In this document: piece after piece, positions 35,731 to 60,438 of the stretch
Layout of the letters: each line of letters starts with the position of its first letter
Numbering within the stretch: position 1 is the first letter of the stretch
Source of the DNA: Thermoanaerobaculia bacterium
GTDB lineage: Bacteria > Acidobacteriota > Thermoanaerobaculia > Gp7-AA8
NCBI GenBank assembly: GCA_044866315.1
Contig: JBIOTX010000044.1
Span: 10,596-74,595, forward strand
Length of the DNA: 64,000 nucleotides
Reading direction: 5' to 3'
Notes under the pieces: model-generated
What the model was told of the DNA's origin: nothing
Database searches by the model: none
The model's input: the letters and a program-made list of their open reading frames with translations, nothing else
Program-made: the position numbers and the translations under genes

Positions 35731-38700
35731 ATGATGAAGCGTCTCGCCGGTAGCCGGATGGTCGTTTTGCTGCTCGCTTGTCACGTCATCTGCGGCGAGC
35801 TGCAAGCCAGTGCGCTAGATGATGCATTTCGCGCTGAACAGCTGCTTCGACAGCTGCAACAGATCCATGGCTCGGGCGACCACTGCGGAGCAGCCTGTTC
35901 GTCGCAGCCGCTACAGGAGGCGCTCGCCCTGCGCCTCTCCGCGTGTCTCCGCTCACGGCGCAAGGTCTATCAAGAACGCGACGTCCGCTCGGCCGGTCTT
36001 CGTCCCTGCCTCATGTACGCTGGCGATTCGATCGTCGCGCCCGGGCAGGCGGTGGCGCTTCTCGGCAATGTCATCGAGCCGTTCTTCATCCTCGAGTCGA
36101 ATCGGGCCGCCGTGTCGTTTCTCGAGAGAGGACGCCGCGAGCTGATCGCCCGGGCGGCACACGACGCGGAGACGGTGGCCGAGGCGGTGGCAGTCGCGGC
36201 GGTGTTTCAGTCCGCGCCTACCGCGGTACTCGACCTCCTCGGCTTCTCCGCTCTTCGCGAACCGCTCGCCGCGGTCGGTGACGCAAAGACCCCTCTAGCA
36301 CAGCGGGTGGACGCGGCGGTGCGGATCGTGGCCGCGACTGAGGCCGTCATGGGGAAGCAGGTGACTTCGCCCGCGCTCGATCGCTGGCACCGGTTCCGGA
36401 AGGAGGGCCTCGCCATTGGGCGCTGTTCGCCTCAAGCCATTTGTGCCGTGTTCCGCCCCGAGGCGGGGAATCCGGGGGAGTCGACGGCGGTGTCGGCGTT
36501 CGCAGTCGGCCCGGCGGTGGAGCTCCCGCTCGGCCTCACAATCCGGAACACCCGCTTCGTCGACGACGCGAATGGCGGACATCTCGTGTTTCCGCCGTCT
36601 GGACTCGTGGCGAACGTCCGGGAAGACGCCGGACAACTGCGCCGGTCGCTCGCATTAATGGGTATTCCGCCTCTCCTCGCGGACCGCGCCACGTTCTCGG
36701 GCTTGGCTGCCGGCCCGCAGGCGCTGTCGATCGCTGTCCACCTCTTCGTGGCGGGCAGAACGGGCGCCGTTCACGGCGAGTTGCCTCTCCAATCGCTGAT
36801 CCGCTCAGCGAACGAGCGGGGCCTCTCGTCAGCCGGACAGGCTTTCGCCGAGCGCTTTCAGGCGCGCATCGCCGAGGCGCTCAACTCGGCCGGATTCCAG
36901 TGGACGCTCCGCGGCGTGCCGCTGAAGGCGACGTTCACCGCAAAAGCGATTGGGAACGGACGCATTCATCTCGCCGGACGATGGTCTGCCGGCGAGCTCG
37001 GCGAGGTCGAGTTCCCGGTCGACCTCGTCCCGGGAGTGGACGGAGCGCTGCAGGTGATGCCCGGCGACCACCTCGTTCCCCCTGCCGCGGTCGAGAAGTG
37101 GATCGCCTCCGTACGCCGGCCACTGGTGACCGCGCTTCAGGCGGCGGTGCCACCCGAGATGCGGCCGCGCCACTCCGGAATGCTCGTCATCCAGCGGGCG
37201 AAGGCTGTCGTAAACGCGCTGACCGTCGACTCCGTCACCTTCGACGAAGCCCTCGCTGTCTACACTGCACACATCTCGGTCGCGCTTCCGGCGCCCTACG
37301 GCGGGACCCTAACTGTTACCTTCGGGCCGTCGCAGCCACTGCCCGATGTCGGCGCACGTGTCCGCGACGCTCTCCAGCGCGCCCTCCTCGCGGAGCTGGC
37401 CGCCAGCGCGGTGGCGAGCGCGATTACCGCGCCCGCTGATCTTGCCGGCAGGAGCTTCGAATTCCTCGGCGGGAGGATCGAGATCCTCTCCGATCCTCCG
37501 CCCCGCTTCGAGGACGGTGCGTGGTCGGCATCAGTGCGAACAACATTCGGTGCGGTCAGCCGAACACTGCTGCGCCTGCGCATCGCTCCCTCTGCCATCG
37601 GCTCACCGGCTATCTCGCCCGCCGACCTCGACTTCGCCGCGGTCCAGGTGACGGGAGGCACGTTCATCGATCTAGTGGCCGACATTCTTGCAGCGCGAGG
37701 GCTGGCCCTGCAGAGCGCCAAATCGCTGATCTCCATCCGGGACGTGCGGCCGATACGCCGTGGGCTTGCCTTCCGGCTGGTGCTGCGGAACCTGCCGATA
37801 CTCCCGAACGGAATCGACCTGGGCGACTTCGAACTCGGTGAGCGCACCACGGCCAACATCGCCGAGCGCATCGGCGCACCGATCCAGAATGCGCTGCTGG
37901 GACTGGGTGAAATTGAGCAGGTGGGACCGGTCCGCAACATCGCTCTCGACACCCAGCGGACGAACCTGCTCCTCGCTTCCCGGTCCCGGCAGATCGTACT
38001 GAAGGCAGAGGTGATCTTCGATGCACCGATCAGCGGCACGCTGAAGGTGCGGATCACGATTCCCGAGAGCGGGCCGCTGGTGGTCGAGCCCGAGCAGCGC
38101 CTCGAGACGTGGCTCGCCGGCGTCCTGCCCGCCCTCGTGCCGGTGCTATCGGTCGATCACGTGCTCTCCGTCAAGCTCTCGCGAGTCTCGGAGACGTTCA
38201 TCGCGATGTCGCCGCTCCGCTTCGACGCCGACATCGACGTCACGCTCTTCGACTCCGTCCCTCTGCCGACGGCGCGCATCGTGATCTCCCCATCCGGCAT
38301 GGATTTCAGTCAGTTCAAGCCATCGATCGACTATCCGGCCGCCTTCATCGTGGCGCCCGCTGCTCCGCTCTCCCTATACGCGGTGAACAGCACCCTCGCC
38401 GTCGACCTGACGCGAGGCGCGCTTACAGTGAGCACTGAGCTGACGTGCGCAGCCACGCCGGCAGAGGCGAAGCTCGTTGCCCTCGCCGCGCACATTAAGG
38501 GCAGTCTCACGGTCGAGGTCCGCGAGGCGACCGCGAAATTGCGCGGAGACGTGAAGCTCGCGAGAAGCATGACCATCATGACGGTCACCGGAACGCTGGA
38601 CATTCCGCATGCCCACTTCGAGGGAACTCAGCAGACCGGCGATTTCCTTCGGTCGATCGCCGACGTCGGGAGCACAGTGGTCATTGACGCGCCGACGGCG

Positions 38701-40764
38701 ACGATGAGCGGCGGCACGCACTTCAAGGCTCTCGGCCTGAACATGCAGGCGACCCTCACGATCGTCCTCCGGCCACCGCCCGTCATCGCGCTGCGAGGCA
38801 TGGCGAGCATTCTCGGCGCCGAGGTGGCGGTTGACGTGTCCGCAGGAGTGGCTCCCCCGACCCTTAGTGCCTCGGCGAACCTCCAGCTTCCGACCGTCCT
38901 CGGCATTGATCTCGGCGGCGGCCATCTCGACATTAAACCCTCGTTCGTTCGCCTGAGGTTCCATGCTCTCGGCGCGAACGTCACGGTCCTCGTTCCGAAT
39001 CTCTCCCGGCTCGATATCGCACTGCTCGAGGAAATCGTCCGCAGTCGCCTGCAGCATCCCGAGCTGAACCTCTCGGACATCATCGACGCGCTGCGGGACC
39101 GGAACATTACGGTGTCGCTCGTTGAGAGCGGCAGTGGAGAAAACGAAGACATTTACACGCAGCGCACCGGCGGCAGCGACGGCGGAGGCGAAGAGAGTCC
39201 CGGCCTGGAGCACGGCGGCAACCCGTCGCCGACCGTCGGGCCGAACCGCGGCCCCCGGGAAGCAACCGGCGGCGGTGAGGACAAGAGCGAGAGCTCGGCG
39301 GCGAGCCGATCCGGCGGTCAGGGAGACGTGCAGACGACGCAGGCTAACGGCTGGTTCTACCGCGTTCGGCAGAATGGCACGGCGTGGATATTGGTCTCCG
39401 TCTTCGGGGACCATGAGTCGGCACCGCGCCTCCTCAGTGAGGAGACGCGCGCCCATCTTGTCAGCCCCAACGTTGTAACGCTCTTCGACACTTGGTTGTT
39501 CATTGTGACGGCGGACATCGAAGCTGGCACGCTGCACGCCATCTGGTTCGAGCCGCCGCGAAACTCTCCTATCGAGCACTTCCCGCTCGCGGAGAAGGTT
39601 GATCTCTTCGAGTGGCTGGACGGCTGCCGAAAATCGAAGAACTGCGACATCAACGCGCGGCTCGGGTATCTCCCGTTTCTCGCTGACTACGAGCACCACA
39701 TCGAGGTACGAGAGACCGCGCTGCTGCCGCAAGACCCCGAACAGTCGCAGCCGCGCGGCTTCGTCATCGCCTGGAGTGGCGAGGGATCGAAAGCCGAATG
39801 CCGCGGCATCGCGCTTTGGCCCGAGTATCCGAAACGCGACGAAAAGAACCTCGCCCGGTCCGTTCCGTTCGTGCCTACCGACCTGCAGGATGCCCGCTGT
39901 GCGCCCCCGTCACCGGGAGCGGCTTTCCCTCCCCTAGGCGCCGCACCTCCCGACTGGTTCCGGTACCGGCCGGTCAGGATCGTTTCGGCGCAAGGCAACG
40001 TCGTGGAGAGCCTCAGCGGCGATGCCGCCCGGCGCAATCGAGTCCTGCGCCTCCTATCGAAGGACTTGCGGGCGACCGAGGTCCGCGAATACGGCACCAG
40101 AGTGCTCGCGGTGACCGATCTGCAGCCGATCGAGCCGCCGGGCCGAGCGCGGCGAGGCGGCCCGGAACCTTCGCAAGGTCCACCACCGCAAGGTGCGCCG
40201 CCGCAGACGGTCCTTCCGCTGCCGGCATCACTCGCGCCGCCGCCGGGGTTCGCCCCGGCTCCGGTACGATTCGCGAAGACGGTCAGCCTTATCGGACCGT
40301 CCGCCGCAGTGCAAGTTCCGGTGATTTTCGCCCACGACGCGGGAGGCGGACAGGCGACAGGCCTAGCTCTGCCCGAATGCGTCGCCCGCTCGGCGCCGAT
40401 GGCGGCCGAACTGGCCGGGCTGCTCGACAAGGCCGACGAGCATGCAGTGGCGCTGCTCCTGGAAACGCCGCAGACCTGCAGCGCATCGCTGATCACCCTC
40501 GACCCGAAAACCAGCGCCTGGATGGCCGCTGGCATCACCCGACTGCCTGACGACCGGACGAAAGCGTATCGGATCGACGGGGCGCGCTTCACGAAGCTGT
40601 TCAACCAGTGGGCGGCCGACGGGCTCTATCACGGCGCGCGCCCACCGGAAGGGGCAATGTGGGTCCCCACTGTCCTGCGCCAAGTGTTGACCCCCGGACA
40701 CGACTGGCCGAAAACCTTCCGTGCAAATCCGCTGGGCCTCATCGGGCTAAGTGCAATGCAGTGA
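35731..40764 (+). CDS. Giant secreted/anchored protein (1677 aa) of unknown function
   Basis: N-terminal signal/anchor MMKRLAGSRMVVLLLACHVICGELQA, with SD gggggagg upstream. About 1100 aa are Ala/Leu/Gly/Val-rich. A Gly/Ser/Glu-rich disordered linker (SGSGENEDIYTQRTGGSDGGGEESPG...) follows. A Pro-rich segment (PPGRARRGGPEPSQGPPPQGAPPQTVLPLPASLAPPPGFAPAP) precedes a ~165-aa C-terminal domain. Confidence 0.7.
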   Translation: MMKRLAGSRMVVLLLACHVICGELQASALDDAFRAEQLLRQLQQIHGSGDHCGAACSSQPLQEALALRLSACLRSRRKVYQERDVRSAGLRPCLMYAGDSIVAPGQAVALLGNVIEPFFILESNRAAVSFLERGRRELIARAAHDAETVAEAVAVAAVFQSAPTAVLDLLGFSALREPLAAVGDAKTPLAQRVDAAVRIVAATEAVMGKQVTSPALDRWHRFRKEGLAIGRCSPQAICAVFRPEAGNPGESTAVSAFAVGPAVELPLGLTIRNTRFVDDANGGHLVFPPSGLVANVREDAGQLRRSLALMGIPPLLADRATFSGLAAGPQALSIAVHLFVAGRTGAVHGELPLQSLIRSANERGLSSAGQAFAERFQARIAEALNSAGFQWTLRGVPLKATFTAKAIGNGRIHLAGRWSAGELGEVEFPVDLVPGVDGALQVMPGDHLVPPAAVEKWIASVRRPLVTALQAAVPPEMRPRHSGMLVIQRAKAVVNALTVDSVTFDEALAVYTAHISVALPAPYGGTLTVTFGPSQPLPDVGARVRDALQRALLAELAASAVASAITAPADLAGRSFEFLGGRIEILSDPPPRFEDGAWSASVRTTFGAVSRTLLRLRIAPSAIGSPAISPADLDFAAVQVTGGTFIDLVADILAARGLALQSAKSLISIRDVRPIRRGLAFRLVLRNLPILPNGIDLGDFELGERTTANIAERIGAPIQNALLGLGEIEQVGPVRNIALDTQRTNLLLASRSRQIVLKAEVIFDAPISGTLKVRITIPESGPLVVEPEQRLETWLAGVLPALVPVLSVDHVLSVKLSRVSETFIAMSPLRFDADIDVTLFDSVPLPTARIVISPSGMDFSQFKPSIDYPAAFIVAPAAPLSLYAVNSTLAVDLTRGALTVSTELTCAATPAEAKLVALAAHIKGSLTVEVREATAKLRGDVKLARSMTIMTVTGTLDIPHAHFEGTQQTGDFLRSIADVGSTVVIDAPTATMSGGTHFKALGLNMQATLTIVLRPPPVIALRGMASILGAEVAVDVSAGVAPPTLSASANLQLPTVLGIDLGGGHLDIKPSFVRLRFHALGANVTVLVPNLSRLDIALLEEIVRSRLQHPELNLSDIIDALRDRNITVSLVESGSGENEDIYTQRTGGSDGGGEESPGLEHGGNPSPTVGPNRGPREATGGGEDKSESSAASRSGGQGDVQTTQANGWFYRVRQNGTAWILVSVFGDHESAPRLLSEETRAHLVSPNVVTLFDTWLFIVTADIEAGTLHAIWFEPPRNSPIEHFPLAEKVDLFEWLDGCRKSKNCDINARLGYLPFLADYEHHIEVRETALLPQDPEQSQPRGFVIAWSGEGSKAECRGIALWPEYPKRDEKNLARSVPFVPTDLQDARCAPPSPGAAFPPLGAAPPDWFRYRPVRIVSAQGNVVESLSGDAARRNRVLRLLSKDLRATEVREYGTRVLAVTDLQPIEPPGRARRGGPEPSQGPPPQGAPPQTVLPLPASLAPPPGFAPAPVRFAKTVSLIGPSAAVQVPVIFAHDAGGGQATGLALPECVARSAPMAAELAGLLDKADEHAVALLLETPQTCSASLITLDPKTSAWMAAGITRLPDDRTKAYRIDGARFTKLFNQWAADGLYHGARPPEGAMWVPTVLRQVLTPGHDWPKTFRANPLGLIGLSAMQ

Positions 40765-43448: not shown

Positions 43449-43949
43449 ATGAACCGCATCGCCTGCATTGTGGTCGCCGCAATCGTCGTCGCCGTTGCGG
43501 CCGACTTTTCCGCGGCACCGAGGACGTTCACCCTCACCGTTCAGCGCAACATGACGTGCAAGGACGGCTCAACGAACGGGCGTCTGCTGGTGGGAGGCAA
43601 CGAGATCGCCCGCACCCTCGAGCCGGCACTTCCCGGCAACCGCATTCCGGCCGGCAGCTACCAAGGAGTCATCCGTACCGATGGCGATCTCGGCTGGCGG
43701 GTGGAGCTGAAGGACGTGAAGGGATGGGAGGCCGTCCAGATCCACAAGGGTAATTACCCGAGTAACACGAAGGGATGCATTCTCGTCGGCACCGGAATCA
43801 CGGGAGCGACCGATCCGAAGACCGGCCAGGAGACCTGCATGGTCACCAACTCCGCCGACGCGCTGGCGAAGATTCAAGCAGCCATGCAGAAGGCGAGTGA
43901 TAGCGGTGTCTCAAGCCAGGGGCTAGCCATCACAATTACAGTCGAGTAA
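43449..43949 (+). CDS. N-terminally anchored/secreted DUF5675-like protein (tentative)
   Basis: Signal/anchor MNRIACIVVAAIVVAVAADF. Motif NRIPAGSYQGVIRT...VQIHKGNYPSNTKGCILVGTG resembles the DUF5675 pattern (RIPAGTY...IHgGN...T.GCIlVG). It is the last gene of the operon. Confidence 0.45.
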   Translation: MNRIACIVVAAIVVAVAADFSAAPRTFTLTVQRNMTCKDGSTNGRLLVGGNEIARTLEPALPGNRIPAGSYQGVIRTDGDLGWRVELKDVKGWEAVQIHKGNYPSNTKGCILVGTGITGATDPKTGQETCMVTNSADALAKIQAAMQKASDSGVSSQGLAITITVE

Positions 43950-45619: not shown

Positions 45620-45630
45620 TTAGCACATCC

Positions 45631-46470: not shown

Positions 46471-46715
46471 GGATGAATTATACCGCGTTGCGTTATCAGT
46501 AGTTGCGTTGCCGCCACTGCCCCGGTTAAGCCGACCGGCCCATGTATCATGACGACGCTCACGAATGTCTGTGCGTGTGATCACCGCGCGGCCCCTGTTT
46601 CTCGCAACGGGAAATCCTCGAAGCATATCGACATTCCTCTTTTCCGATCCGTAGCAAGGCGTCATCCCCAATCTCACTGATGTCCGACTCTGCGGAGCCC
46701 GAGTTGTCCAACAGG

Positions 46716-48016: not shown

Positions 48017-48994
48017 TTGCGAGTAGTCTGCATTCTCGAAGAACTGCTTCGTGAACACACCGAGTTAGACGACGCAACTCTCGCGTCGCGAATCGGTGTG
48101 GTCGAGAGAACGGCCGCCAAACTCCGCCGGAACGCGCGCAACTGGAGGCTGACCCGCGAGAACCTTGAGAAACTAACGATCCTTGCGTACGAATTCGGCT
48201 ACGAGCACGGGATTTTCGAGATTCGACACCATCCTTTGTGGTCGACGTTCGCAAATTCAAACGTCACCTTGTATCGGGGTGACCAAGTCTCCGATGCCAA
48301 AGTTGAGGCGGATATTCGGGAGTTTCTCAGCCGCATTCATGCCCGACAGCAGATAACGCTTGTCAACGAGGCTACTCCGGCTGTCGCCAAAGCTATCGCC
48401 GATGCAATGCGCGGAACGAATTGCATTTTCATAGGCTCACCACGACATAACCCAGCGACGGAGATTGCACTAGCCCTCCTCTGGTCTGCAAAACCGTTCG
48501 ATTCCAATGCGGCGAACCGCGAAAAGCTGCCGTTTCACATGATTCGGTCCGATGGCGTCCCTGAAACTGCTGTGATCAGTCGTGGTAAACATGCTGGTTT
48601 TGATGTTCGCAGCGTCGACGGTCGCAAGAATTGCCTTGTTCCGGTAAGTTGGCTCGCCGCCGATGAGTACAACAAGTGGAGCGGCGAGGGCAACGACGCC
48701 GCTATGGTTGCCATATGCAGATCGCCGCTCAACTCCGCACGCCCAGTGACCTCCATCGTTATCTGTGGCTACACCGGCTTGGCTACAAAACGCGTTGCAC
48801 ATGAACTCATCGCAGGTGAACCTCCGCTCACGGCGTCCGATCTCGAGCGCGCTGGTGACCCGCGTTTGCTCGGATACTCTTTTGCCTTCAGCAAGCCGCG
48901 CGGGCAGCGTCGCGCCGGGTTCGGCGATCAGCGGAAGTTCATCGAGCGAACCGGGCGCTGGGCGCCACCGTGGGATGAAATTGCGGAGTTTTGA
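48017..48994 (+). CDS. Hypothetical protein with N-terminal HTH-like segment
   Basis: LASRIGVVERTAAKLRRNARNWRLTRENLEKL is HTH-like. The remaining Rossmann-like alternation (NCIFIGSP...IALALLW) is unassigned. Confidence 0.45.
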   Translation: MRVVCILEELLREHTELDDATLASRIGVVERTAAKLRRNARNWRLTRENLEKLTILAYEFGYEHGIFEIRHHPLWSTFANSNVTLYRGDQVSDAKVEADIREFLSRIHARQQITLVNEATPAVAKAIADAMRGTNCIFIGSPRHNPATEIALALLWSAKPFDSNAANREKLPFHMIRSDGVPETAVISRGKHAGFDVRSVDGRKNCLVPVSWLAADEYNKWSGEGNDAAMVAICRSPLNSARPVTSIVICGYTGLATKRVAHELIAGEPPLTASDLERAGDPRLLGYSFAFSKPRGQRRAGFGDQRKFIERTGRWAPPWDEIAEF

Positions 48995-49724: not shown

Positions 49725-52700
49725 TTAGAACTCCAGTCCTTTGTGGAGTGCCGCACGCTCATCCATGCGCCGCGCATGATGGTCGTAGTGGTCGGCAATC
49801 TCATTCACAACTGCAGCCGCCCCCGGCCAACGGGTCGCGAGCGCCGCAGCATGTGCTCGGTATGTCGCAGCGAGTGCCCGCTCCTGTTTTCCTCCGTCCT
49901 CCAGCCCGCGGCTCGTCACGCCGCGGCGGTTGTAGACGCCGATTGTGAACCCGTGGCGGAGGTCGTCGCTTTCGATTTCCTCCAGCACATCGCACACCGC
50001 TGGAGGAGGCCAAGGCGTGCCTCTGGAACCGCGGCCGAGCATCTCACCGATCTCGAGGTCGGCGATCTCTGCGCGATCGGCTGCAGCAGCAAGCGTTCGC
50101 GTTTCGACTACCCACGCCATGAGCCGTGCCGAATCGATTCCATTCTCGCCCCTTCCTGGGATGTGATCCCAAGTGTCGAGGAGCTCGTACGCCGCGCGCG
50201 CTTTGTTTGCCTGCTCCGCGGAAACCTCGACGTCCACGCCTCGTTCGCTTGCCGGCCGGAATATGAGCGAGATCATGTCGATGAACAGCTGCGGTTCATC
50301 TGCAAGTGCGCGATGCAGGAACTTCGGCCGCCGGATGAAGCGGCTCAGCGCCGGGAGATATGCCCACTCCAAAGCCGCGGCGCGACCAGTCGGCAATCGT
50401 CCCGGTTCGGTCACCACGTCCAGCAGTTGGCCAATGTTGTGTCCTTCGATCTGTCCGGGACGATCATCGCCTTCCCCGGGCTGCAGCAAACGCTCGAGGA
50501 CTGCCGCCGCCACTTCTGCATCGAGTGGCCGTTTCCGGCGGTGGTGCGTCGCGAGCACTTCGAGCGCCATGTGCGGTCGTTGGTATGCGAGGAGTTTCTG
50601 CGCGATCCTCTCCGCGCTCGACTCTGTTGCGCTATAGGGCAGCATGCGCCGCCAGTACTCACGCTGGACATGCTCGTCCTGTGCATCGACCAGCGCAAGC
50701 ACTTCATCAACGGGATCGCACATCGCGAGGAGGATCGCCTGCTGGTCGGCGCGCAGCGGCGGATCTGCACGGAGCCACTCTCGCACCCATTTGAGGCTAC
50801 CACGTGCGAGATCCCATGTGACTGACTGCGCCAGTTGCGCTGCGACCGGATCGTCGGAGCTCAAGTGCTCACGAATGAGCGTTTCCTTGATCTCCGGCGA
50901 CAAGTTGATCTTCGCAAACGCATTCCCTACCTCGTACGGAACAGCGACAGTACGCGCGAAATTGAGTACCGCGTCAACGCCACCTCCGTCATAGATGGTC
51001 TGGATGACCTCGTGCTGGAGAGCCGACACAGCCTCTCGCTGTTCGTCGAAGTCGCCGCTCGGCGGGTCAATGAGCTGTGCATGATGCGTAAACAACCAGC
51101 CGAACTGATCTTCCGTTCGCTCCGGCTCGAAGAGCGGCAGCAGCGTCGCAAACTGTTGGACGATATCCCCCGGCAACGCCCACTCCGCATCTTTGAAACT
51201 GCGATGCTGGGCAACCACCTCTCGAAGAGCTTTCCAGAGAACCGTTCGGTCACGGTCGCCTAGTTCTTCGCGAACCGTTTTGACCCTATCGAGGATGAGT
51301 TGTCGCTCATCAGGCGGGAGATTGGGAGCGGCCTCAATGAGTTCGGCAAGGCACGCCGCATTCGTCCCAGCCGCGTTTAGGAGCCGTTGTGTCATTTCGT
51401 GTGCGCTCGTCAGGAGATCACCGGTCGTGGTCGGCACTGCGCCCTCGGCCCACGGTTGCCATTCCGGCTGCGGGTTATGCGGTGCCGTGTCGTATCCCCG
51501 TGGCAGGAGGGTCTTTAGCAGCTTCCACGCGACCTCCGGACATCGCTTTTGAACGATCTCTAACACGGCCAACCGCGTGGTAACGCTCGCTGCAGTCTGC
51601 GGGAACCAGGGCAAGAAAATGTGCCGGAGACTCGCCATGGGGCGATTTGCCATACGGCCTCCCGGATCACGCTCCGCGAGTCGAGCGAGGGCCACAGCGG
51701 CTCGCGCAAGGTGTTCTGGGCTCCATGCGAGCCGCTCGAGCGCCCATAGAAGGCCCGTGTGCGGGGTCGGCGCAGTGAAATTTGTGTCGTCAGGCAGGAA
51801 CAGATGAATGAGCGTCGGATCGCCGCCAGAGAGGCCGGCCTCGACGGCGCTCAGAAAGACCTGCGGCGCCGCTTCGGCAAGGAGGGGCAGGCAGTGCGAG
51901 AGAGCCGCCCAGATTCTCCAGTTGGTGTTCGCGGTCGAGAGCACCTTCCCGACGGTCGTCGCAGCCACATGAGCGCCTGTCACGCTGCCGGCCCGAACAC
52001 GCTTGGCGCCCACCGTGCCGAGAACGGCGAGCGACTCCGCGATGCCTTCGGCCAAGTAGCCAGAGCGCGTGAGTACGTGGTTCGTCAGCGAGGCGCGCCA
52101 TTGCTCATCGCGTGGCAGGTCATACCTCGGGTCAGGTTCGACGAGAACGCGTTCGGCAACCGTGCGAAATCGCGTGAGGTGGTCGTTCGTGACATACGGA
52201 GCGAGTAGTGTCCACGCGTCTTCCTTGGTCGGTAAGAACCATGTCCCATCGACTTCGCGGATTGGCGAATCAGGCTCGTGTAGCCATCGCCGCAGATCTC
52301 CAATGGCTGCATCGTACGGCTTGCCGGTTAGATCTTCGACCGCTGTGCGATCCGCCGTTTTCCCTCCACTCCACGATCCGAGGAGAAGAGACGGTACGAG
52401 CGTTGGTCCGTTGACCGGATCGGACCAGGCTGGACGCTGTGTCTCTGGCCGAACGGCGAGCTTGCGGTAGAAGGCGGCGAAGCTCCTCGCGGCAACCCGC
52501 GCAAGAGTCCGGGCTTCCGTGTCCTTCTTTCCGGCGGCTCTCAGAAACGCTTTGGCAGCGTCACGGTTCAGCCCCTCTAACGGATCGAGAAGATCGCGCG
52601 GCGCGTTGCGTTCCGCCGGCAACAATAGGCGGTGCCGAGCAGCGCGAACGCGTCCAATCTCGATCCCCTGGAACGTCGGGATCAGAATCAGGGGCGACGC

Positions 52701-53519
52701 AGTGGTCGCAAGGTGCCGGACTGATTCCGCATCGTGGACCATGAGTGTTCGTGCGAGAACGTCCTCGTGGTCCGCCTGCGGCAGCGTGAGGAGCGCCGAG
52801 ACGATGATTCCGATCGCTTCATGACGTGTCTCACCGACGACCGCATGCGTTTCTTGGTCACCCGACGCTACGGCCCGAATCGCCGCAACCACAGCATCAC
52901 GGCCCGCAATCAAAAGCTCCGGCTTAAGCGGCGGTTCCGCTGCTGCGGTGTACGCCGCCCAATACCGCTCGAGGTCTTCAGCTCCTGCAGGATGCTTCCC
53001 GAGCAAGTGGGAAATCCAGAAGTGGACCGCAGGCGCAGCTTCGAGCCATTGCTCCAAATCGTCCGCGTCGAGAACGCGGATGCCCTTCCAGATTCCCTCA
53101 GCCGCCTTTTCCCTCGCCCAATCGTATTTCTTCTGCCATCGCCGCGGCGTGACGGCGACGTACACAGTATCTTTGGGGATCACTCCCGCCGGGTTCTTGC
53201 TGCGTTTCGCGTAGTCGGCTTCTGCTTTCGAACGCGGATTCGTGTCCGCGCCCATTTCCCAGACGGACCCACCGGCAGAAACGAATGCCGTCGCCTCGCG
53301 CGCGCGCACGATGCCATCCCATCCTGGCCGTCCAACGCTGTCGCCGCCGGGGAATGCTGCGCGGTCAAGCGTGGGTGTTGTGGCCCGAACAAGACGGCGA
53401 ACGAGAATCGGAAGTGTGGTCTGCGCATCTTTCGTTGCAGCCCACCGGGCTAGATCCGTTGCAGTTGCGAAGGTAAGGAGTGTCATCTGCTTGTCCGTGC
53501 TTCTGTGTGAGGGCGCCAC
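49725..53519 (-). CDS. Large (1264 aa) alpha-helical repeat protein with uncharacterised N-terminal domain
   Basis: N-terminal ~180 aa (TFATATDLARWAA...PGWDGIVRA...GGSVWEMGADTNPRSKAEADYAKRS...IRVLDADDLEQWLEAAP), then more than 1000 aa of HEAT/ARM-like helices. It is divergent from the adjacent NACHT-like gene. Confidence 0.6.
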   Translation of the reverse strand: MAPSHRSTDKQMTLLTFATATDLARWAATKDAQTTLPILVRRLVRATTPTLDRAAFPGGDSVGRPGWDGIVRAREATAFVSAGGSVWEMGADTNPRSKAEADYAKRSKNPAGVIPKDTVYVAVTPRRWQKKYDWAREKAAEGIWKGIRVLDADDLEQWLEAAPAVHFWISHLLGKHPAGAEDLERYWAAYTAAAEPPLKPELLIAGRDAVVAAIRAVASGDQETHAVVGETRHEAIGIIVSALLTLPQADHEDVLARTLMVHDAESVRHLATTASPLILIPTFQGIEIGRVRAARHRLLLPAERNAPRDLLDPLEGLNRDAAKAFLRAAGKKDTEARTLARVAARSFAAFYRKLAVRPETQRPAWSDPVNGPTLVPSLLLGSWSGGKTADRTAVEDLTGKPYDAAIGDLRRWLHEPDSPIREVDGTWFLPTKEDAWTLLAPYVTNDHLTRFRTVAERVLVEPDPRYDLPRDEQWRASLTNHVLTRSGYLAEGIAESLAVLGTVGAKRVRAGSVTGAHVAATTVGKVLSTANTNWRIWAALSHCLPLLAEAAPQVFLSAVEAGLSGGDPTLIHLFLPDDTNFTAPTPHTGLLWALERLAWSPEHLARAAVALARLAERDPGGRMANRPMASLRHIFLPWFPQTAASVTTRLAVLEIVQKRCPEVAWKLLKTLLPRGYDTAPHNPQPEWQPWAEGAVPTTTGDLLTSAHEMTQRLLNAAGTNAACLAELIEAAPNLPPDERQLILDRVKTVREELGDRDRTVLWKALREVVAQHRSFKDAEWALPGDIVQQFATLLPLFEPERTEDQFGWLFTHHAQLIDPPSGDFDEQREAVSALQHEVIQTIYDGGGVDAVLNFARTVAVPYEVGNAFAKINLSPEIKETLIREHLSSDDPVAAQLAQSVTWDLARGSLKWVREWLRADPPLRADQQAILLAMCDPVDEVLALVDAQDEHVQREYWRRMLPYSATESSAERIAQKLLAYQRPHMALEVLATHHRRKRPLDAEVAAAVLERLLQPGEGDDRPGQIEGHNIGQLLDVVTEPGRLPTGRAAALEWAYLPALSRFIRRPKFLHRALADEPQLFIDMISLIFRPASERGVDVEVSAEQANKARAAYELLDTWDHIPGRGENGIDSARLMAWVVETRTLAAAADRAEIADLEIGEMLGRGSRGTPWPPPAVCDVLEEIESDDLRHGFTIGVYNRRGVTSRGLEDGGKQERALAATYRAHAAALATRWPGAAAVVNEIADHYDHHARRMDERAALHKGLEF

Positions 53520-53697
53520 CTAGTCCCCTATCTGATGACGCCGGAAGCCGCTTGTTTTAAAGGTTACGGTTGGCCGAACATTAAGTCGAGTTCATGCTCG
53601 AATTCACGCTCAAGACTTCGCTGATCCACGCGCTGGCCACGGCCGAAGCCGCGTTCGTCCGATTGCGATCCCGCTGTGACTTTCGTAAAACGGTGGC

Positions 53698-56600
53698 ATG
53701 AGCTCTTCATCGAGTGCCGGCGGTGCAGCTGCGGCTGGCGGGACGACGTTTGAAGCGCGCGTCGCCGGGTGGTACGGCGCGCACATGCTGGCCGAAGCCG
53801 GCGCTCCGAGCGTCCCCGGTCACGCTTCCACTGCTCGGGTGCAGTACCTGCGTTGCCAGAGCGGCGAAGCCGTAGACGACATCCTCGTCGGGTTCTCAGA
53901 CGGCGGACATGACTTCGTACAGGCTAAACGGTCGTTGAGCCTCAAGGTCGGCGAAAATTCCGAGCTTGCGAAGGCCCTCGACCAGTGCGTTCGCCAGGTC
54001 GTTGGAAGCCGGGGCGACGACAAGGGTGGGCGACCGTGGGATCGTCCCCTCGATCCTGCGCGCGATCGTTTAGTGCTCGCCGTGGGCGCGTCGAGTTCAA
54101 AGCCGATTCGCGACGATCTTGCGGCTGTGCTCCCGCGGGTACCTGACCTCCGGCCCCAGCAGCCGCTGACCGATGCCGCCCTCACCACAGCGCAGTCGAA
54201 CGCGCTCGCTGTCGTCTCGGATCACGTTCGGCGGAGCTGGAAAGCAGCAACCGGCGTCGATGCAACCGACGACGACCTGCGCACGCTGCTATCACTCCTC
54301 TCCGTCCTAGAGTTCGACGTTGATCCCGGCGGCGCCAACGAGCGCGAGGCGTTGTTGCTGCTCCGCAGTGCCGTCGTGCACGAGCCGACACACGACGCGG
54401 CTGCGTGGCACGTCGTCTGGAGTACGACGGCGCAGTGCGCGCAAGACCAATCGGGCCTTGACCGCCGCGGACTGGAAAAGGCGGTGCGGAACGCTGGCAT
54501 CAGGATGCGCGGCGTTCGGAGCTACGAGCAAGACGTCAACCGGCTCAAGGCGACGTCGATGCAGGCGATGGCGCTCGTTGAGCGCTTCGCCTCCTTCGAG
54601 AGCGGCGGTGCAGTGATCAAGCTTCCGCGCGACGTAAGCGACACAATCGGCACGCTTGCGATGCACCACTCGTTTGCGATCGTGGGCGAGCCGGGCGCCG
54701 GGAAATCTGCGGCGCTGTACGAAGCTGCTGCCGCGCTCGCGCCGAACACCGCGGTCGTGGTTCTCCAAGCGCTCGACGTGGCGTGCCGGAACCTCGCAGA
54801 ACTCCGTCAGCAGCTCGGCCTCGAGCACCACCTCGTTGAGGTGCTCGACAACTGGCGCGATGCCGACGTGGGCGTCCTGTTCATCGATGCCCTCGATGCC
54901 GCCCGGGATGAAGCCTCCGCGCGGACGTTGCGGGATCTTATGGATTTGGTGTTGAAGAAGGCGTCGCGCTGGCGAGTCGTGGCATCTATCCGGTCATTCG
55001 ACCTGAAGCAAGGTACGCACTACCAGCACGTCTTCCATGGATCGCTCGCGGATGTGCCGGCGGAATTTCAGCGGTCTGAATTCGCGCAGGGGCGGCACGT
55101 CTTCGTGCCACGGTTGAGCGATCAGGAACTGGCGGAGCTCGCGACACTCGCGCCGCTCCTTCGTCCGCTCATCGACTCCGCGTCCGGACCGCTGAAAGAC
55201 CTCCTGCGCGTCCCGTTCAACGTCCAGCTGCTCGCGCAGCTCGTGGACGATGGCGCGGAGCTCTCCGCGCTTCAGCCCCTGCGAACGCAGGGCGAGCTCC
55301 TCGACTTGTACTGGTTGCGTCGCGTGCGACGGGACGCGCACGGAGATGCGCGCGAAAGCCTCCTCCGGCGCGTCTGTGAGCAGATGGTCGCCGCGCGGCA
55401 ACTGCGGGTGGACCGCACGAGTTTGTCGCTCGGGTCCACCGAGTCGAGCCTCCTCCACGACCTGTTGTCCGCACACGTCGTGATGGAACTTGACAGCCCG
55501 CACGCACGCGTGTTGACGTTCTCGCATCACGTCCTGTTCGACTACGCTGCGGCGCGACTCCTCCTCCCCGTAGAGCCCGGGGATCTCGCGACCTATCTTG
55601 CGTCTGAGCCTTCGCTCGTCTTCGTGCTCCGGCCGAGTCTCGTGCTCGCGTTTCACGAACGGTGGTGCCACAGCCGAGAGGCCTTTTGGGCGACGACGCT
55701 GCGCCTAATCGCCGACGATCGGATCGAGGCGGTGGGGGAAGTCATCGGTCCGGTGACAGCGGTTGACCTCGCGACGAGCGACGAGGACTGGAATCCCGTC
55801 TTTGAGGCGCTCGCAGGTGCCAATCCTAGTATGCAGGCTGCGGCGGCGAAGGCGTTGCAGTACGTCGTTGGCTCGCTCCTCGCGGGGAGCCTGAGGCCGA
55901 CGGTCGGCGCAGATGCGGCTCCGTGGGCGGCGCTCGCGGAACGCATCGCCGCATCCCTACGGCCGGACCTCACGGGCGCGCTTCGAGTGCTGCTGTACCA
56001 GCTTACCGAGAAGGATGGTGAGATGACGCCCGAGGAGCGTGCCAGCGCCGGCCGTGCGGCACGCCTGCTGTTGCAGTACGCAGAACGCGAGCTGCCGAAC
56101 AACCGGAACCTCGTCAACGCGAGCATCGTGTTCGTTGCTCGCACGATTGCGACTGCCCCTTCGGCGTCGACGCTGCTCCTGCGGCGTTCCTTGGAGCCTG
56201 ATCGTGTGCAACAGTTCGGCTATCACGAACTGCCGGCGCTCGCGCGCGAAGTGCAGCACCTCATGGCGGATCCAGCTTTCGTAGCGGATCTCTACGTAGC
56301 CACCTTCTCGTTCACGGAGAAATCGAAGGAAACGACGGCAATCGGCAGGAGCGCGATCCTCCCGTTGAGTTCGAACCGTGCTCAGGACTACGAAGGAGCG
56401 TACTACGCACTCGCGGAAGCGTTCCCCGCGTTCTTCGAAGCGTCGCCGGTTCACGCTACGGGCGCGCTAGTCCGTGCCATCGATGCGTTCATTCAGGAGG
56501 AGCACCCACCCGCGTCGGGCATCATCGAGGAGGAGACGTTCACAGTTGGCGAGGCGCCTGTCCGCCTCCGAACCGACTACAGCGAGATTTGGGACAAGAC

Positions 56601-58662
56601 GCCGCACGACGACGCCCAGCGGCTGCTGATCGCGTTTGAGGAAGGCCTGCTCGCCCTCGCCGACGCCGGAGCAGCACAGACACTCCGAGACGTGCTCATG
56701 GTCGTTGTCGGCAGCAACCGCATGGCGGCTGTCTGGCGGCGGCTGCTCCGTGCGGGCGCGCAACGGCCCGGCACGCTGGGCGTCCTGCTCGCCCCGCTGC
56801 TCCAGCGGCCTGTGTTCGACGCATACGACACGTCAAGGGCGGCTGTGCGTCTCGCGCAGGCCGTGTACCCGCACCTTGCGGCGCCGGAGCGCGAAAAGCT
56901 CGATGAGGTTTTGCTTTCGCTCTCCGACACCGCGGACAAAGGACGGCCTGCGCGTGAGCGGCTTCGGGATGAGTGCGTCGGCGGCCTGCCGCAGGAGCTG
57001 CTCCAGAAGCAGGAGTTGCGCGATCTTGCCGGTCGCCTCGCGGCCACGAGGGACCGTGCGGGTGATGCGGCGGCTCGCCACCCCTCCGCAGCCGCCGATG
57101 ACGTCGACAAGGACGACGAGGACGACGATGATGAGGACTTCACGATGTCCACGGGTTGGCTCGATCCCGATGATGCGATGCTCCAGCTAGAAGGAGTCAA
57201 CGTGGCTGACGAAGCGAGTGCATACCTTCGCTCGCTGGTCGCACCGGTGCAAGCGTTCGCCAACAAACACACGAACACGGAGCCTGAACTGGGTGAGGTC
57301 GAGCAGATCCTGCCCGAAATTACACATTTGGAAGAAGCCGCAATCGATGGTGAATGGCGCAGGATACACGTACGAGTGCTGAAGCTCGCGCGTGTCGTAG
57401 TAGCCGAAGCATACTCCGTCATCCCGAAGTGCCGCGCGCTCCCGCCGGACCATGCCGCGCTGCAGCGCGCGCGGCAGGGCTTGCTTCAGGCGGCAACGAG
57501 CGCATCACCTGAAGTGGACGACAAAATCGAAGCAAATTGGGACATGAAGGGTAGCGGCTGGGGGCCCGCGGATCGGATCGAAGCGGGACAAGGGCTGCTG
57601 TACCTCGCTCGCCGGAAGGAGACGTGTGACTCCGAAGTTCTCGACGCTTTAGAAACATTGGCGGCTGATCCGGTTGCAGCAGTTCGATACCAGATTGCGG
57701 CAAACCTGAATCTCCTTTACTACACGGCGCGCGACCGCATGTGGAGCATCCTCGAGCGGCGCATCGCTGAAGAGCAGCGCGGGGGCCTGGCGAACGCCCT
57801 CCTCGCGTCCTTGCGCAGGTTGATTCCTGCCGACGAGGAGCGGGTGGCGGGGCTCGCGATTCAACTCGCAACGCGCTTCGCTGCACACAAAGAGGTGGCA
57901 CGCTCCTCCACGAAACTCCTCACCGCGATGTGGATCTGGCGAAAGACTGCCGGAGCCCGGGCGCATGTGGACCGCGCGATCGCCAACGTCAGCACTGCAC
58001 CGGAGGTCGCGGGTGCCGTTTTCCACGTCATTCGGAAGCCGCTCGCTCATGGCGCGCTCGGCGACCCAGAGGTGGAAGACGTCCGCGAACGGACCTTCGA
58101 AGTCACGAAACAGCTCCTCGCGAATGCGCTCGAATCCTACCGTACCGGTATCGAGGGGCAGGACTTCTCGGTACGCGGTGAAGCCGAGGTCGAGAATGCA
58201 CGCGCCATCGTTGGGATCATCGATGGGGTTGCGCGCGAACTGTACTTCGCCTCGGGCGCGCATGATCGATCAGAACGACGGCCCGCTGACGAACCGAAGC
58301 AGCGCCGGTTCTATACGGAAGCGGGTGGGGTGATCGACCTCCTCATCACGACCGGTCTGCCACCGGCGACGCACTCACTCGTGAAGATGTTCGAGTCGAT
58401 GATCGACCTGCAGCCGGCGGAAATCTTCTTCCGTATTCGCGATCTGATCCGCGCTGGCCACGCAGCAGGCTACTCACAAGAAGGTCTGGCGATCGACTTG
58501 GTCGTGAGGATTGTCGAGCGATACCTCGCCGACTATCGGCACCTCTTTCAAGCGAGTGCGGAACTGCGTGCGGCGCTGAGCGAGATTCTCAACCTCTTCA
58601 TCGCTGCTGGGTGGCCTCAGGCGCTTCGTCTGGCCTCACGTCTCGAAGACATCTTCCGCTAA
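53698..58662 (+). CDS. Bacterial NACHT/STAND-like P-loop NTPase (1654 aa) with N-terminal nuclease-like (DUF4297/Cap4-like, tentative) domain and C-terminal helical repeats
   Basis: Walker A FAIVGEPGAGKSAALY. Walker B VLFIDALDAARDE has the NACHT-like hhhhD[GA]hDE form. The N-terminal segment GEAVDDILVGFSDGGHDFVQAKRS looks like a PD-(D/E)xK unit (D ... QxK). An acidic stretch DDVDKDDEDDDDED is followed by about 700 aa of ARM/HEAT-like repeats. Confidence 0.65.
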   Translation: MSSSSSAGGAAAAGGTTFEARVAGWYGAHMLAEAGAPSVPGHASTARVQYLRCQSGEAVDDILVGFSDGGHDFVQAKRSLSLKVGENSELAKALDQCVRQVVGSRGDDKGGRPWDRPLDPARDRLVLAVGASSSKPIRDDLAAVLPRVPDLRPQQPLTDAALTTAQSNALAVVSDHVRRSWKAATGVDATDDDLRTLLSLLSVLEFDVDPGGANEREALLLLRSAVVHEPTHDAAAWHVVWSTTAQCAQDQSGLDRRGLEKAVRNAGIRMRGVRSYEQDVNRLKATSMQAMALVERFASFESGGAVIKLPRDVSDTIGTLAMHHSFAIVGEPGAGKSAALYEAAAALAPNTAVVVLQALDVACRNLAELRQQLGLEHHLVEVLDNWRDADVGVLFIDALDAARDEASARTLRDLMDLVLKKASRWRVVASIRSFDLKQGTHYQHVFHGSLADVPAEFQRSEFAQGRHVFVPRLSDQELAELATLAPLLRPLIDSASGPLKDLLRVPFNVQLLAQLVDDGAELSALQPLRTQGELLDLYWLRRVRRDAHGDARESLLRRVCEQMVAARQLRVDRTSLSLGSTESSLLHDLLSAHVVMELDSPHARVLTFSHHVLFDYAAARLLLPVEPGDLATYLASEPSLVFVLRPSLVLAFHERWCHSREAFWATTLRLIADDRIEAVGEVIGPVTAVDLATSDEDWNPVFEALAGANPSMQAAAAKALQYVVGSLLAGSLRPTVGADAAPWAALAERIAASLRPDLTGALRVLLYQLTEKDGEMTPEERASAGRAARLLLQYAERELPNNRNLVNASIVFVARTIATAPSASTLLLRRSLEPDRVQQFGYHELPALAREVQHLMADPAFVADLYVATFSFTEKSKETTAIGRSAILPLSSNRAQDYEGAYYALAEAFPAFFEASPVHATGALVRAIDAFIQEEHPPASGIIEEETFTVGEAPVRLRTDYSEIWDKTPHDDAQRLLIAFEEGLLALADAGAAQTLRDVLMVVVGSNRMAAVWRRLLRAGAQRPGTLGVLLAPLLQRPVFDAYDTSRAAVRLAQAVYPHLAAPEREKLDEVLLSLSDTADKGRPARERLRDECVGGLPQELLQKQELRDLAGRLAATRDRAGDAAARHPSAAADDVDKDDEDDDDEDFTMSTGWLDPDDAMLQLEGVNVADEASAYLRSLVAPVQAFANKHTNTEPELGEVEQILPEITHLEEAAIDGEWRRIHVRVLKLARVVVAEAYSVIPKCRALPPDHAALQRARQGLLQAATSASPEVDDKIEANWDMKGSGWGPADRIEAGQGLLYLARRKETCDSEVLDALETLAADPVAAVRYQIAANLNLLYYTARDRMWSILERRIAEEQRGGLANALLASLRRLIPADEERVAGLAIQLATRFAAHKEVARSSTKLLTAMWIWRKTAGARAHVDRAIANVSTAPEVAGAVFHVIRKPLAHGALGDPEVEDVRERTFEVTKQLLANALESYRTGIEGQDFSVRGEAEVENARAIVGIIDGVARELYFASGAHDRSERRPADEPKQRRFYTEAGGVIDLLITTGLPPATHSLVKMFESMIDLQPAEIFFRIRDLIRAGHAAGYSQEGLAIDLVVRIVERYLADYRHLFQASAELRAALSEILNLFIAAGWPQALRLASRLEDIFR

Positions 58663-58976: not shown

Positions 58977-59588
58977 TTAGTCCTGTTCCGGCGCGAGCTC
59001 GGAAAGTTTCCGCCAAAGCGCGTCGAGGTCGATCGAAAATCCCTCGCATCCCGGAACGTTCGTCATCGTTCCTTCCGTTGCGTAGGCGGCGCGCGCATAG
59101 CGACCATCCGTCAGCTCCCAGACTTCCAGCGACTGCAGCCGCGGATCGAGAATCCAGTAGTAACGAATTCCGAACGATGCGTACTCGGCCATCTTCTCGA
59201 TGCGATCGCGCCGTTCATCGCGCGGCGTGGACGACACCACTTCGACGGCGATGTCCGGGGGCGTGCTGAGGGCTCCGTTACGCGGAATCTTCTGATTCCG
59301 ACCGGGCAGATAAACGGTGATATCGGGTTTGCGTCCCCGATCATCCCCAACCGCATATTTGGCATCCGAACCGAGAATCCAGCCCTGTTCTCCAAGCCAA
59401 TTTCCGAGCACGCGTCCCAGCCACATCACCACGATCTCGTGCACGGCACTCGACACTTCCTCCTCCTCCAGGCGGCCGTCGACGAGCTCTCCCGGCTCAT
59501 CCTCGTCCATCGCCGCCCACTCTTCGAGAGTGAGGTGACGGCCGAGGATGGGGCGTGGGTCTTCGACAGAGGCAAGCGACATGATCAC
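58977..59588 (-). CDS. Uma2-family (DUF820) PD-(D/E)xK endonuclease
   Basis: Core KPDITVYLPG...PPDIAVEVVSSTP (D...EVxS) and the typical ~200-aa length. Confidence 0.7.
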   Translation of the reverse strand: MIMSLASVEDPRPILGRHLTLEEWAAMDEDEPGELVDGRLEEEEVSSAVHEIVVMWLGRVLGNWLGEQGWILGSDAKYAVGDDRGRKPDITVYLPGRNQKIPRNGALSTPPDIAVEVVSSTPRDERRDRIEKMAEYASFGIRYYWILDPRLQSLEVWELTDGRYARAAYATEGTMTNVPGCEGFSIDLDALWRKLSELAPEQD

Positions 59589-59751
59589 AAGATGTTAGCA
59601 CCGTGGAGTGCCCGGCCGTAGCCGTCGTTGAGGGTATTCTTCATGCAGCGGACGGGCGGAAACCGCTGGTTCGCAGCGTATGGTTCGTGGTCCGGGACGG
59701 CGACGCAGCGACGCTGGTCACTGCCTACCCACTGGAGGGGAGGTCGAAACG

Positions 59752-59979
59752 ATGATCCGAGAGCTTGATCGTGTGGTCCTGAACACACGGCTCGACGCAT
59801 TGAGCCTCGAGCCAGGCGACGTCGGAACCGTCGTGCTCGTCCATGACGGTGGCCGAGGATTCGAAGTCGAGTTCGTGACGCTCGGCGGCGAAACCTACGC
59901 CGTGACCACCCTCATGCGCGACGACGTCCGTCCGATCGACCGCAACGAGATCGCGCACGCGCGCGTGGTCGCGGCCTGA
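59752..59979 (+). CDS. DUF4926-domain small protein
   Basis: MIRELDRVVLNTRLDALSLEPGDVGTVVLVHDGGRGFEVEFVTLGGETYAVTTL matches the DUF4926 pattern. The SD ggaggggagg precedes ATG 59752; the track ORF starts earlier at 59680. Confidence 0.55.
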   Translation: MIRELDRVVLNTRLDALSLEPGDVGTVVLVHDGGRGFEVEFVTLGGETYAVTTLMRDDVRPIDRNEIAHARVVAA

Positions 59980-60004: not shown

Positions 60005-60280
60005 ATGAGCGACCTCGCCAACCGCATCGTCCAGAAGCTCTGGTCCTACTGCAACGTCCTGCGCGACGACGGGCTCTCGTACCAGGACTACCTCGAGCAG
60101 CTCACCTTCCTGCTCTTCCTCAAGATGGCCGACGAGCGCGCGCGGCTCACCGGCGAGGAGCAGGCCATTCCCGCCGGCCATCGCTGGGCCGACCTGGCCG
60201 CGCCGCAGATGGAAGGGGTCGAGCTCGTGGCGTGTTACCGGCCCGGCGACCGCCACACCTCCCCGACCCGCACATCCTGG
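60005..60280 (+). pseudogene. hsdM: N-terminal fragment of a type I restriction-modification HsdM subunit
   Basis: MSDLANRIVQKLWSYCNVLRDDGLSYQDYLEQLTFLLFLKMADERA...IPAGHRWADLA matches the HsdM N-terminal domain. The frame then degenerates into Arg/Ser-rich nonsense, and no methylase catalytic domain follows. Confidence 0.5.
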
Positions 60281-60396
60281 CGCAGGAGGTCGCCGACGAT
60301 CTGCGATCGGCTCTTGCCCAGATCGAAGACGTCCTGGGGGACCTGGAGCAACGAGCGGTCGCGACCGCCTCTTCGGAGTGACAGCGGGCACCGTGC

Positions 60397-60438
60397 GCGC
60401 AGCACCGGCGATGGTCCTCGGATCTGACGCTCAGATCC
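60397..60438. repeat. 42-bp direct repeat copy 1 with internal perfect hairpin (GGATCTGA-cgc-TCAGATCC)
   Basis: gcgcagcaccggcgatggtcctcggatctgacgctcagatcc; 38/42 identical to copy 2. Confidence 0.6.

Follow-up and report, generated by a model that had tools for sequence, protein, structure and literature searches.

The 64,000-nucleotide stretch analyzed here (the window, from contig JBIOTX010000044.1 of a Thermoanaerobaculia bacterium) carries two divergently transcribed giant genes: a STAND NTPase gene of the PDC-M54A family on the plus strand (53698..58662; 1654 amino acids [aa] from an ATG start) and, on the minus strand, a gene of a large, uncharacterized, NTPase-free family (49725..53486; 1253 aa from a conserved ATG), hereafter called the partner. 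A first-pass annotation of the window, made from the letters alone, had described the two as a candidate defense module, and both open reading frames (ORFs) lie where it placed them, at 53698..58662 (+; 1654 aa) and 49725..53519 (-; 1264 aa), the latter being open up to a GTG at 53519. Homologue alignment and database gene calls place the partner start at the ATG at 53486, from which its residues are numbered throughout. For the STAND gene, the NCBI call is 1625 aa and begins 29 codons late, omitting window positions 53698-53784, and the Logan call is 1654 aa and is backed by conservation; because the shorter call would lose the N-terminal GG..AGG..F motif of the nuclease head, which is conserved in homologues, the 1654-aa start is preferred and, judged by conservation, is the correct one. 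The intergenic gap, read directly from the sequence, spans 53487..53697; the 178 bp reported for it earlier holds between the ORFs as first called, and becomes 211 bp once the partner start is moved. As for the divergent promoter region that the two genes were suggested to share, the gap is present and no sigma-70-like promoter was found in it, in a scan that is uninformative for the host organism. Copies of the locus were recovered from contig JBIOVK010000060.1 (metagenome-assembled genome GCA_044867665.1, in reverse complement) and from two Logan assemblies.

The pairing of the two genes is not conserved, and they were seen as neighbors only in this lineage. When the six-frame ORFs of 82 independent loci of the partner family, including flanks of up to 10 kb, were searched with a PDC-M54A hidden Markov model (HMM), no PDC-M54A homologue lay beside the partner-family gene; reciprocally, none of 80 metagenomic PDC-M54A loci (L090-L169) had a partner homologue detectable by HMM beside the PDC-M54A gene. 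The only loci with both families were three copies of the present locus (L001-L003). Homology between the two window proteins was also rejected, with hhalign probabilities of 0.2% over the full length and at most 1.5% domain by domain for three domain pairs. Thus, the weak similarity once proposed between the two N-termini did not hold up, nor did the idea that the two genes form one defense module, the usual companion of PDC-M54A being instead the PDC-M54B gene described below.

The STAND protein and the PDC-M54A family

The plus-strand protein was identified by PADLOC as PDC-M54A over its full length, with models matching it end to end (PDLC04700: E=0, 1334 bits, aa 7-1654), whereas Pfam yielded only sub-threshold AAA and nSTAND3 matches near the P-loop. 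More than 430 full-length homologues of ~1660 aa and 34-47% identity were found across many phyla, including archaea, and residues E54, D60, D61, Q75, K77, R311, G333, G335, K336, D397, D400, R403, R432, and H610 are invariant or nearly so among them. A search of the family profile against the PDB gave one significant solved match, Salmonella enterica Avs7 (SeAvs7; 9N00; E 5.3e-12), with a colinear alignment in which the P-loop and Walker B region (aa 278-443) corresponds to SeAvs7 residues 234-405 and the winged helix (aa 495-621) to residues 441-553. This alignment and the invariant motifs delimit a nucleotide-binding and winged-helix module at 54583..55617 (+; aa ~296-640). It contains a Walker A motif, GEPGAGKS (nt 54685-54708, +; aa 330-337), in which G333, G335, and K336 are invariant; a Walker B motif, VLFIDALDAARDE (nt 54874-54912, +; aa 393-405), in which D397 and D400 are invariant and which lines up with VVIDSLD of SeAvs7 as a D-x-h-D acidic pair; and an invariant winged-helix histidine, His610, aligned to SeAvs7 H545. 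The Walker A pattern [AG]xxxxGK[ST] is present in all 110 STAND-family members compared.

An AlphaFold2 model covering aa 1-1200 (predicted local distance difference test [pLDDT] score 87.5) consists of the head, then a P-loop alpha/beta domain with the winged-helix region, and then helices from aa ~640 onward. With this model as query against the PDB, Foldseek returned Avs4 as the top match (8e-13), followed by NLRC4 (1.5e-7), NLRP3, NLRP9, NOD2, and SAMD9; 9n00 was not among these results. The remainder of the protein is an all-helical, HEAT/TPR-like sensor region (55618..58659, +; aa ~641-1654), helical in the model from aa ~640 to 1200 and conserved to aa 1654. A profile of the sensor alone matched SeAvs7 (9n00) with E 0.02, equal to the match with the generic HEAT-repeat protein PP2A-A.

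The N-terminal head (53698..54552, +; aa 1-285) is a putative Cap4-like PD-(D/E)xK nuclease-type domain, assigned from its modeled fold order and conserved residues. Its core follows an alpha-beta-beta-beta-alpha-beta order (H11-35, E48-53, E62-66, E71-77, H89-105, E124-129), and the conserved acidic residues and QxK sit on the expected strands. The candidate catalytic residues (nt 53857-53928, +) are D60, D61, and K77, which are invariant, and E54 and Q75, which are nearly so; the PD-(D/E)xK-like unit noted earlier, E54..D60 D61..Q75-A-K77, is therefore present within a nuclease-type fold order. Sequence links of the head to known nucleases were weak (AbpA, 8zue, E 0.04; Pfam Cap4_nuclease, E 0.017, in one of 26 members). 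Taken together, profiles, model, and Foldseek matches bear out the first-pass annotation in its three main points on this protein, namely a STAND/NACHT NTPase, more than 900 aa of helical repeats after it, and an Avs-type layout of nuclease-type head, NTPase, and long helical sensor. The assignment of the plus-strand protein as a STAND/NACHT-like NTPase with Avs architecture is well supported, and the gene is a new member of the already catalogued candidate family PDC-M54A, with an ATPase module related to that of Avs7.

Among the 80 PDC-M54A loci, one neighbor was recurrent: a gene of ~480 aa directly downstream on the same strand, found in 33 of the 54 loci with at least 1.5 kb of downstream flank and identified by PADLOC as PDC-M54B (E ~1e-190), with no Pfam match. 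Three loci scored as lacking it are frameshifted PDC-M54A genes; others have HsdS downstream, and one locus each has a PglZ protein (L094) and a DUF7380/DUF4209 protein (L126) there. PDC-M54A, with or without PDC-M54B, is often embedded in type I restriction-modification (R-M) loci, with hsdM upstream in eight of the 80 loci, hsdS downstream in eight, and hsdR in four. The window contains PDC-M54A without the adjacent PDC-M54B that belongs to the two-gene definition of the PDC-M54 system. PADLOC on the neighboring genes, an iterated PDC-M54B HMM run over every ORF of 30 aa or more, and tblastn all gave no PDC-M54B match, and a PDC-M54B gene or remnant in the window was rejected on these three empty searches.

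The partner family and its C-terminal module

The partner has no match in Pfam, PADLOC, or NCBIfam, and its family profile matched no PDB sequence. The family is nonetheless large: over 249 full-length homologues were found, ~1250 aa long and 33-45% identical. It occurs in at least 597 GTDB species representatives, spanning nearly all bacterial phyla together with Aenigmatarchaeota and Bathyarchaeota, and on 24 PLSDB plasmids; it is distributed patchily, and members from different phyla and from archaea are 30-45% identical. A search with the first 190 aa gave 3273 clusters at 50% identity, nearly all with the ~1250-aa layout or a ~1365-aa form bearing an extra N-terminal helix-turn-helix (HTH). 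Extra N-terminal domains that precede the full 1250-aa body include NB-ARC and phage integrase domains (possibly gene-call fusions) and, commonly, HTH domains of the XRE, ArsR, or LexA type; examples of extended members are P0081 (1579 aa), P0101 and P0112 (1539 aa), and many of the ~1365-aa forms. The extra HTH domains account for the "HTH transcriptional regulator" annotations that NCBI gives to partner relatives.

A literal Walker-A-like string, GSWSGGKT, occurs at partner aa 370-377 (window 52359-52382) and could mislead motif-based annotation. The [AG]xxxxGK[ST] pattern is present in only five of 94 partner-family members, as against all 110 STAND-family members, and the family consensus at this site is AGxWxxxxEGDR; the string was therefore dismissed as a P-loop and is regarded as a chance match, without a counterpart in 89 of the 94 relatives. 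The earlier statement that the partner has no convincing P-loop stands despite it.

The partner model, which also covers aa 1-1200 (pLDDT 88.2), begins with an N-terminal module (52467..53486, -; aa 1 to ~340) of two alpha/beta domains and a short helical linker, followed by a helical solenoid to the end of the model. The first domain has a PD-(D/E)xK-like topology (H19-36, E40-44, E58-62, E72-78, H84-97, E107-112) and contains the conserved residues D57, E77, and K87 (nt 53226-53318, -); the second (aa ~197-300) is a small, four-stranded alpha/beta domain without a P-loop, in which R196, E223, and H285 are conserved. D57, E77, K87, R196, and H285 are invariant or nearly so across the family. 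A reading of aa ~197-300 as a decayed STAND nucleotide-binding oligomerization domain (NOD), prompted by an 'LAGR' ~25 aa before a strand and then 'AESRxEA' in place of a P-loop, and by 'LILIPxFD', was unsupported, with an hhalign probability of 1.5% against the PDC-M54A NOD and empty PDB profile searches. Foldseek against the PDB ranked Avs3 first (8e-7) and Avs4 next (6e-5), followed by generic HEAT and ARM proteins.

The C-terminal ~900 aa of the partner form a helical module (the C-module; 49728..52457, -; aa ~344-1253), delimited by hhalign to proteins with other N-termini. A scan of viral and prophage contigs gave relatives matching partner residues ~274-1241 only. The Escherichia coli protein WP_096935339.1 ("hypothetical protein"; annotated as 1180 aa, ORF read as 1182 aa) is homologous over aa 265-1171 to partner aa 334-1247 (hhalign 100%, E 5e-122) and over aa 18-254 to the PDC-M54A head (hhalign 92%, E 6e-7); it lacks an ATPase, is not matched by PADLOC, and has no meaningful match in Pfam. 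Its gene is present in eight of 5426 complete E. coli genomes and was located at L176:7386-10934 (+) and, in strain EC96, at NZ_CP060748.1 3598033-3601575 (L187:12007-15549), where it is flanked by IS1 and IS3, with a prophage remnant, a tyrosine integrase, and tRNA-Thr alongside. A search with a 931-aa protein consisting of the C-module only gave 1354 relatives. Among the best 120 of these, the C-module occurs alone at ~930 aa (in Vibrio, Aeromonas, Proteus, Citrobacter, E. albertii, and Pectobacterium), with a Cap4-like head at ~1182 aa, and with Pfam SIR2_2 at 1242-1259 aa. In the last class (P0442, P0483, and P0497), aa 26-298 of P0483 match two Sir2 superfamily protein chains, 8jkz and 8in8 (E 2e-28), its only PDB matches, and its aa 353-1249 match partner aa 344-1247 (hhalign 100%, E 3e-121).

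Genes for the C-module alone follow a 106-aa Pfam HetE-N gene of the same strand at a distance of 6 bp, the two forming a conserved two-gene unit. In E. albertii this pair (L188:5675-8793) lies inside a P2-like prophage, between ogr and tail genes, and in Proteus (L189-L192:4675-7787) it lies in an integrase island at smpB, near PvuRts1I-like and Mrr_cat genes. The small HetE-N protein was also considered as a relative of the partner N-module, and no similarity was found. Judged from sequence, the C-module is thus a unit that has been recombined with different N-terminal modules and is carried in recognized defense hotspots. SIR2 and Cap4-like nucleases are classic abortive-infection effectors. 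Such shuffling is a signature of the sensor domains of immune proteins, and because the C-module is joined to abortive-infection effectors and found in defense hotspots, we infer that it may likewise act as an immune sensor. A diverse C-module profile matched neither SeAvs7 nor any solved defense protein in the PDB at E<=10, and an assignment of the partner as a protein with the Dsr1/Avs7 sensor was rejected at the sequence level, since PADLOC gave no match and the PDB profile searches (family, E<=1; C-module, E<=10) gave neither SeAvs7 nor another defense protein. No paper on WP_096935339, HetE-N, or the partner family was found in the literature searched; the supplementary tables of Lee et al. 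(Nature 2026, PMC13581612) may list the partner family.

No conserved neighbor of the partner family was found in its 82 independent loci. AbiEi recurred in five to eight loci, AbiEii in two to six, and tyrosine recombinases in five to six; PIN, BsoBI, RloB, Tn3, and resolvase genes were sporadic among ordinary genes. One family member lies in a plasmid defense island of Rhizobium tropici together with DUF2357, a reverse transcriptase with SLATT, and a Shedu fragment. Another homologue (L006:5941-9886) is preceded by HTH_3 and Peptidase_M78 genes, an ImmA/IrrE-like pair, and stands beside a Prok-E2_C/ThiF cluster.

Surroundings of the two genes

Downstream of the STAND gene lie a gene for a putative endonuclease of the Uma2 family (58977..59588, -; Pfam Uma2, E 8e-30; PADLOC PDC-S03, E 5e-27), a small DUF4926 gene (59680..59979, +; Pfam, E 3e-17), and a truncated type I methyltransferase gene encoding a 140-aa N-terminal fragment of HsdM (60005..60427, +; Pfam HsdM_N, E 3e-9; PADLOC MTase_I, E 3e-24). 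The fragment covers only positions 3-72 of the 487 in the MTase_I profile, and no further hsdM remnant was found in the window by tblastn. Pfam and PADLOC thus agree with the genes named here at the outset, and the PDC-S03 match and the methylase fragment fit the defense-like neighborhood that had been proposed. Uma2 and DUF4926, next to the hsdM stump, occupy the place expected for PDC-M54B.

Farther upstream, window positions 35731-43949 hold unannotated genes, specifically that of a 1677-aa protein (35731..40764, +) and ORFs of 570, 165, and 239 aa, as well as the gene of a DUF5675 protein (43449..43949, +). A block of lower GC content at 44-48 kb (44291-48994; ~57% against ~65%) contains four ORFs without Pfam or PADLOC matches. 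A tRNA scan found no tRNA genes anywhere in the window that could mark island borders.

Interpretation and comparison with known systems

The locus is best read as a small defense island composed of two independent giant immune-type genes, a Uma2 gene (PDC-S03), and a type I R-M stump. We consider it likely that the two giant genes are independent and horizontally mobile, and that they are neighbors only in this lineage; their anti-phage function, triggers, oligomerization, and nuclease activity are predictions. By analogy with SeAvs7, Avs3, and Avs4, the STAND gene would encode an antiviral Avs-type receptor of the PDC-M54A family. The ~1000-aa helical sensor would hold the protein ADP-bound and autoinhibited until a phage protein binds to the sensor and opens it; ATP at the NACHT-like module (Walker A, Walker B, and winged-helix His610) would then drive oligomerization, which would join the N-terminal Cap4-like PD-(D/E)xK domains into an active DNase, so that phage replication stops and the infected cell dies or is arrested. 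The gene stands alone here, without the PDC-M54B that follows ~60% of its relatives.

The partner may follow the logic of Dsr1 and Dsr2, with the C-module sensing an infection cue and releasing or activating the N-terminal effector; this logic is suggested because the same C-module is found fused to a PDC-M54A-type head or to a SIR2 NADase, or alone behind a HetE-N gene. By this analogy the partner is a candidate for a new ATPase-free sensor-effector family. The broader proposal is about evenly balanced between true and false: the partner gene would stand for a large family of immune receptors that lack an ATPase and have not been named, in which the C-module would be a new infection sensor with interchangeable effectors, these being the new nuclease-like N-module, the Cap4-like head, SIR2, and the separately encoded HetE-N protein.

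Several points weigh against the reading of two independent immune-type genes. The partner reaches only low template modeling (TM) scores against Avs3 and Avs4 (0.14-0.18), and its matches to HEAT-repeat proteins are almost as good. For the partner N-module, no sequence relative of known function was found in Pfam or in PDB profile searches with aa 1-330 and 181-480, and its nuclease-like character, with the enzymatic activity this would imply, is predicted from the fold order and three conserved residues. Similarly, the Cap4 label for the STAND head is supported by modeled fold order, motifs, and marginal sequence matches. Since ~60% of PDC-M54A genes have PDC-M54B, a solo PDC-M54A might be incomplete, and the PDC-M54 system is a computational candidate only, with no relevant paper in the literature searched. 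Finally, an N-terminal HTH and an annotation as transcriptional regulator are found in many partner relatives, and the nearest neighbors of the family are mostly ordinary, with defense or mobile genes recurring in a handful of the 131 neighbors sampled.

The last two of these points also count in favor of a non-immune partner, namely a large regulator of signal transduction or transcription, or an accessory housekeeping protein residing in variable regions. The N-terminal HTH domains (XRE, ArsR, and LexA-type) of relatives annotated by NCBI as helix-turn-helix transcriptional regulators would fit such a role, as would neighbors that are mostly metabolic genes and the lack of a detected known effector domain in the window protein; however, most family members have no HTH, the C-module is fused elsewhere to SIR2 and to a Cap4-like head, relatives reside in a P2-like prophage, in integrase islands, on plasmids, and beside AbiE, and the patchy distribution at 30-45% identity across phyla and archaea also speaks against it. 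A non-immune role is on balance unlikely. An equally improbable alternative takes the STAND gene as a decaying or incomplete PDC-M54 remnant, formerly part of a type I R-M locus and non-functional without PDC-M54B. Consistent with decay, PDC-M54B is missing, Uma2 and DUF4926 stand where it would be expected, a truncated hsdM lies 1.3 kb downstream, and R-M genes recur at PDC-M54A loci at the counts given above; yet the 1654-aa ORF is uninterrupted and keeps every invariant residue, PDC-M54B is also missing from ~35-40% of the PDC-M54A loci that have adequate flank, and solved Avs proteins of the same layout act as single genes (PMC13581612). That the two genes form one two-component system, with the partner serving the STAND protein as co-sensor, regulator, or second effector under a shared divergent promoter, is very improbable: the genes point away from each other across a gap of only 178-211 bp, both proteins have an effector-plus-sensor layout, fusion of a STAND-type head to a partner-type C-module elsewhere indicates that the families exchange parts, and another partner could in principle stand in for the missing PDC-M54B, but adjacency is nil at both sets of loci outside copies of the present one, partner-family genes typically stand alone in varied contexts, and the two proteins share neither homology nor a common motif.

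Under the preferred reading of two independent immune-type genes, the STAND gene is one more member of a catalogued Avs-type candidate family, now anchored to the solved SeAvs7, which is useful but expected. The partner matters more, as its very widespread family goes unrecognized by domain, defense-system, and structure libraries. If the partner family is a real defense system, it would account for thousands of genes that currently bear the annotation "hypothetical" or "HTH regulator", and the enterobacterial representatives of the C-module are suited to existing phage-gene trigger screens.

Among known systems, the closest to the STAND gene is PDC-M54, whose PDC-M54A HMMs match the protein end to end, the difference being that PDC-M54B is missing from the window. 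Avs4 and Avs3 (PDB 8DGF, 8DGC) have an N-terminal PD-(D/E)xK-type effector and a giant helical sensor, as is predicted for the two giant proteins; however, TM-scores are only 0.14-0.28, sequence similarity is significant nowhere outside the P-loop region, and the partner has no NTPase. SeAvs7 is a protein with a Cap4 nuclease, a STAND module, and a TPR sensor (PDB 9N00, 9N01, 9YIX) that engages the phage major capsid protein along with EF-Tu, tetramerizes, and cleaves DNA, and the solved Avs proteins of this layout work as single genes (Lee et al., Nature 2026, PMC13581612). The STAND protein resembles it in domain order (Cap4-type head, NTPase, winged helix, and ~1000-aa helical sensor in a single chain of ~1500-1650 aa) and in the alignment of Walker A, the D-x-L-D Walker B, and the winged-helix histidine (H610/H545), with a profile E of 5e-12. 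It differs in that identity is low, the sensor-only match (E 0.02) is no better than that to generic HEAT proteins, and PDC-M54A is usually accompanied by a second gene, PDC-M54B.

For the partner, the nearest parallel in layout is with Dsr1 and Dsr2, defense-associated sirtuins in which an effector is fused straight to a large helical sensor of phage proteins, without an NTPase. Unlike these, the partner N-module is not SIR2 (no Pfam match), neither the partner nor WP_096935339.1 matches any PADLOC Dsr model, and the partner family has no sensor homologous to that of Dsr1 and Avs7 or to that of Dsr2 by PADLOC and PDB profile searches. Like them, the partner consists of an N-terminal module and a ~900-aa helical module without an ATPase, and some of its relatives carry a SIR2 N-terminus at a total length of 1242-1259 aa. 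SeAvs7 and Dsr1 have their bilobed sensor in common (PMC13581612); if the partner family is a real defense system with the C-module as its sensor, it would parallel that shared-sensor principle with an unrelated sensor, and the principle of one sensor serving many effectors, with or without an ATPase, would extend to a second sensor.

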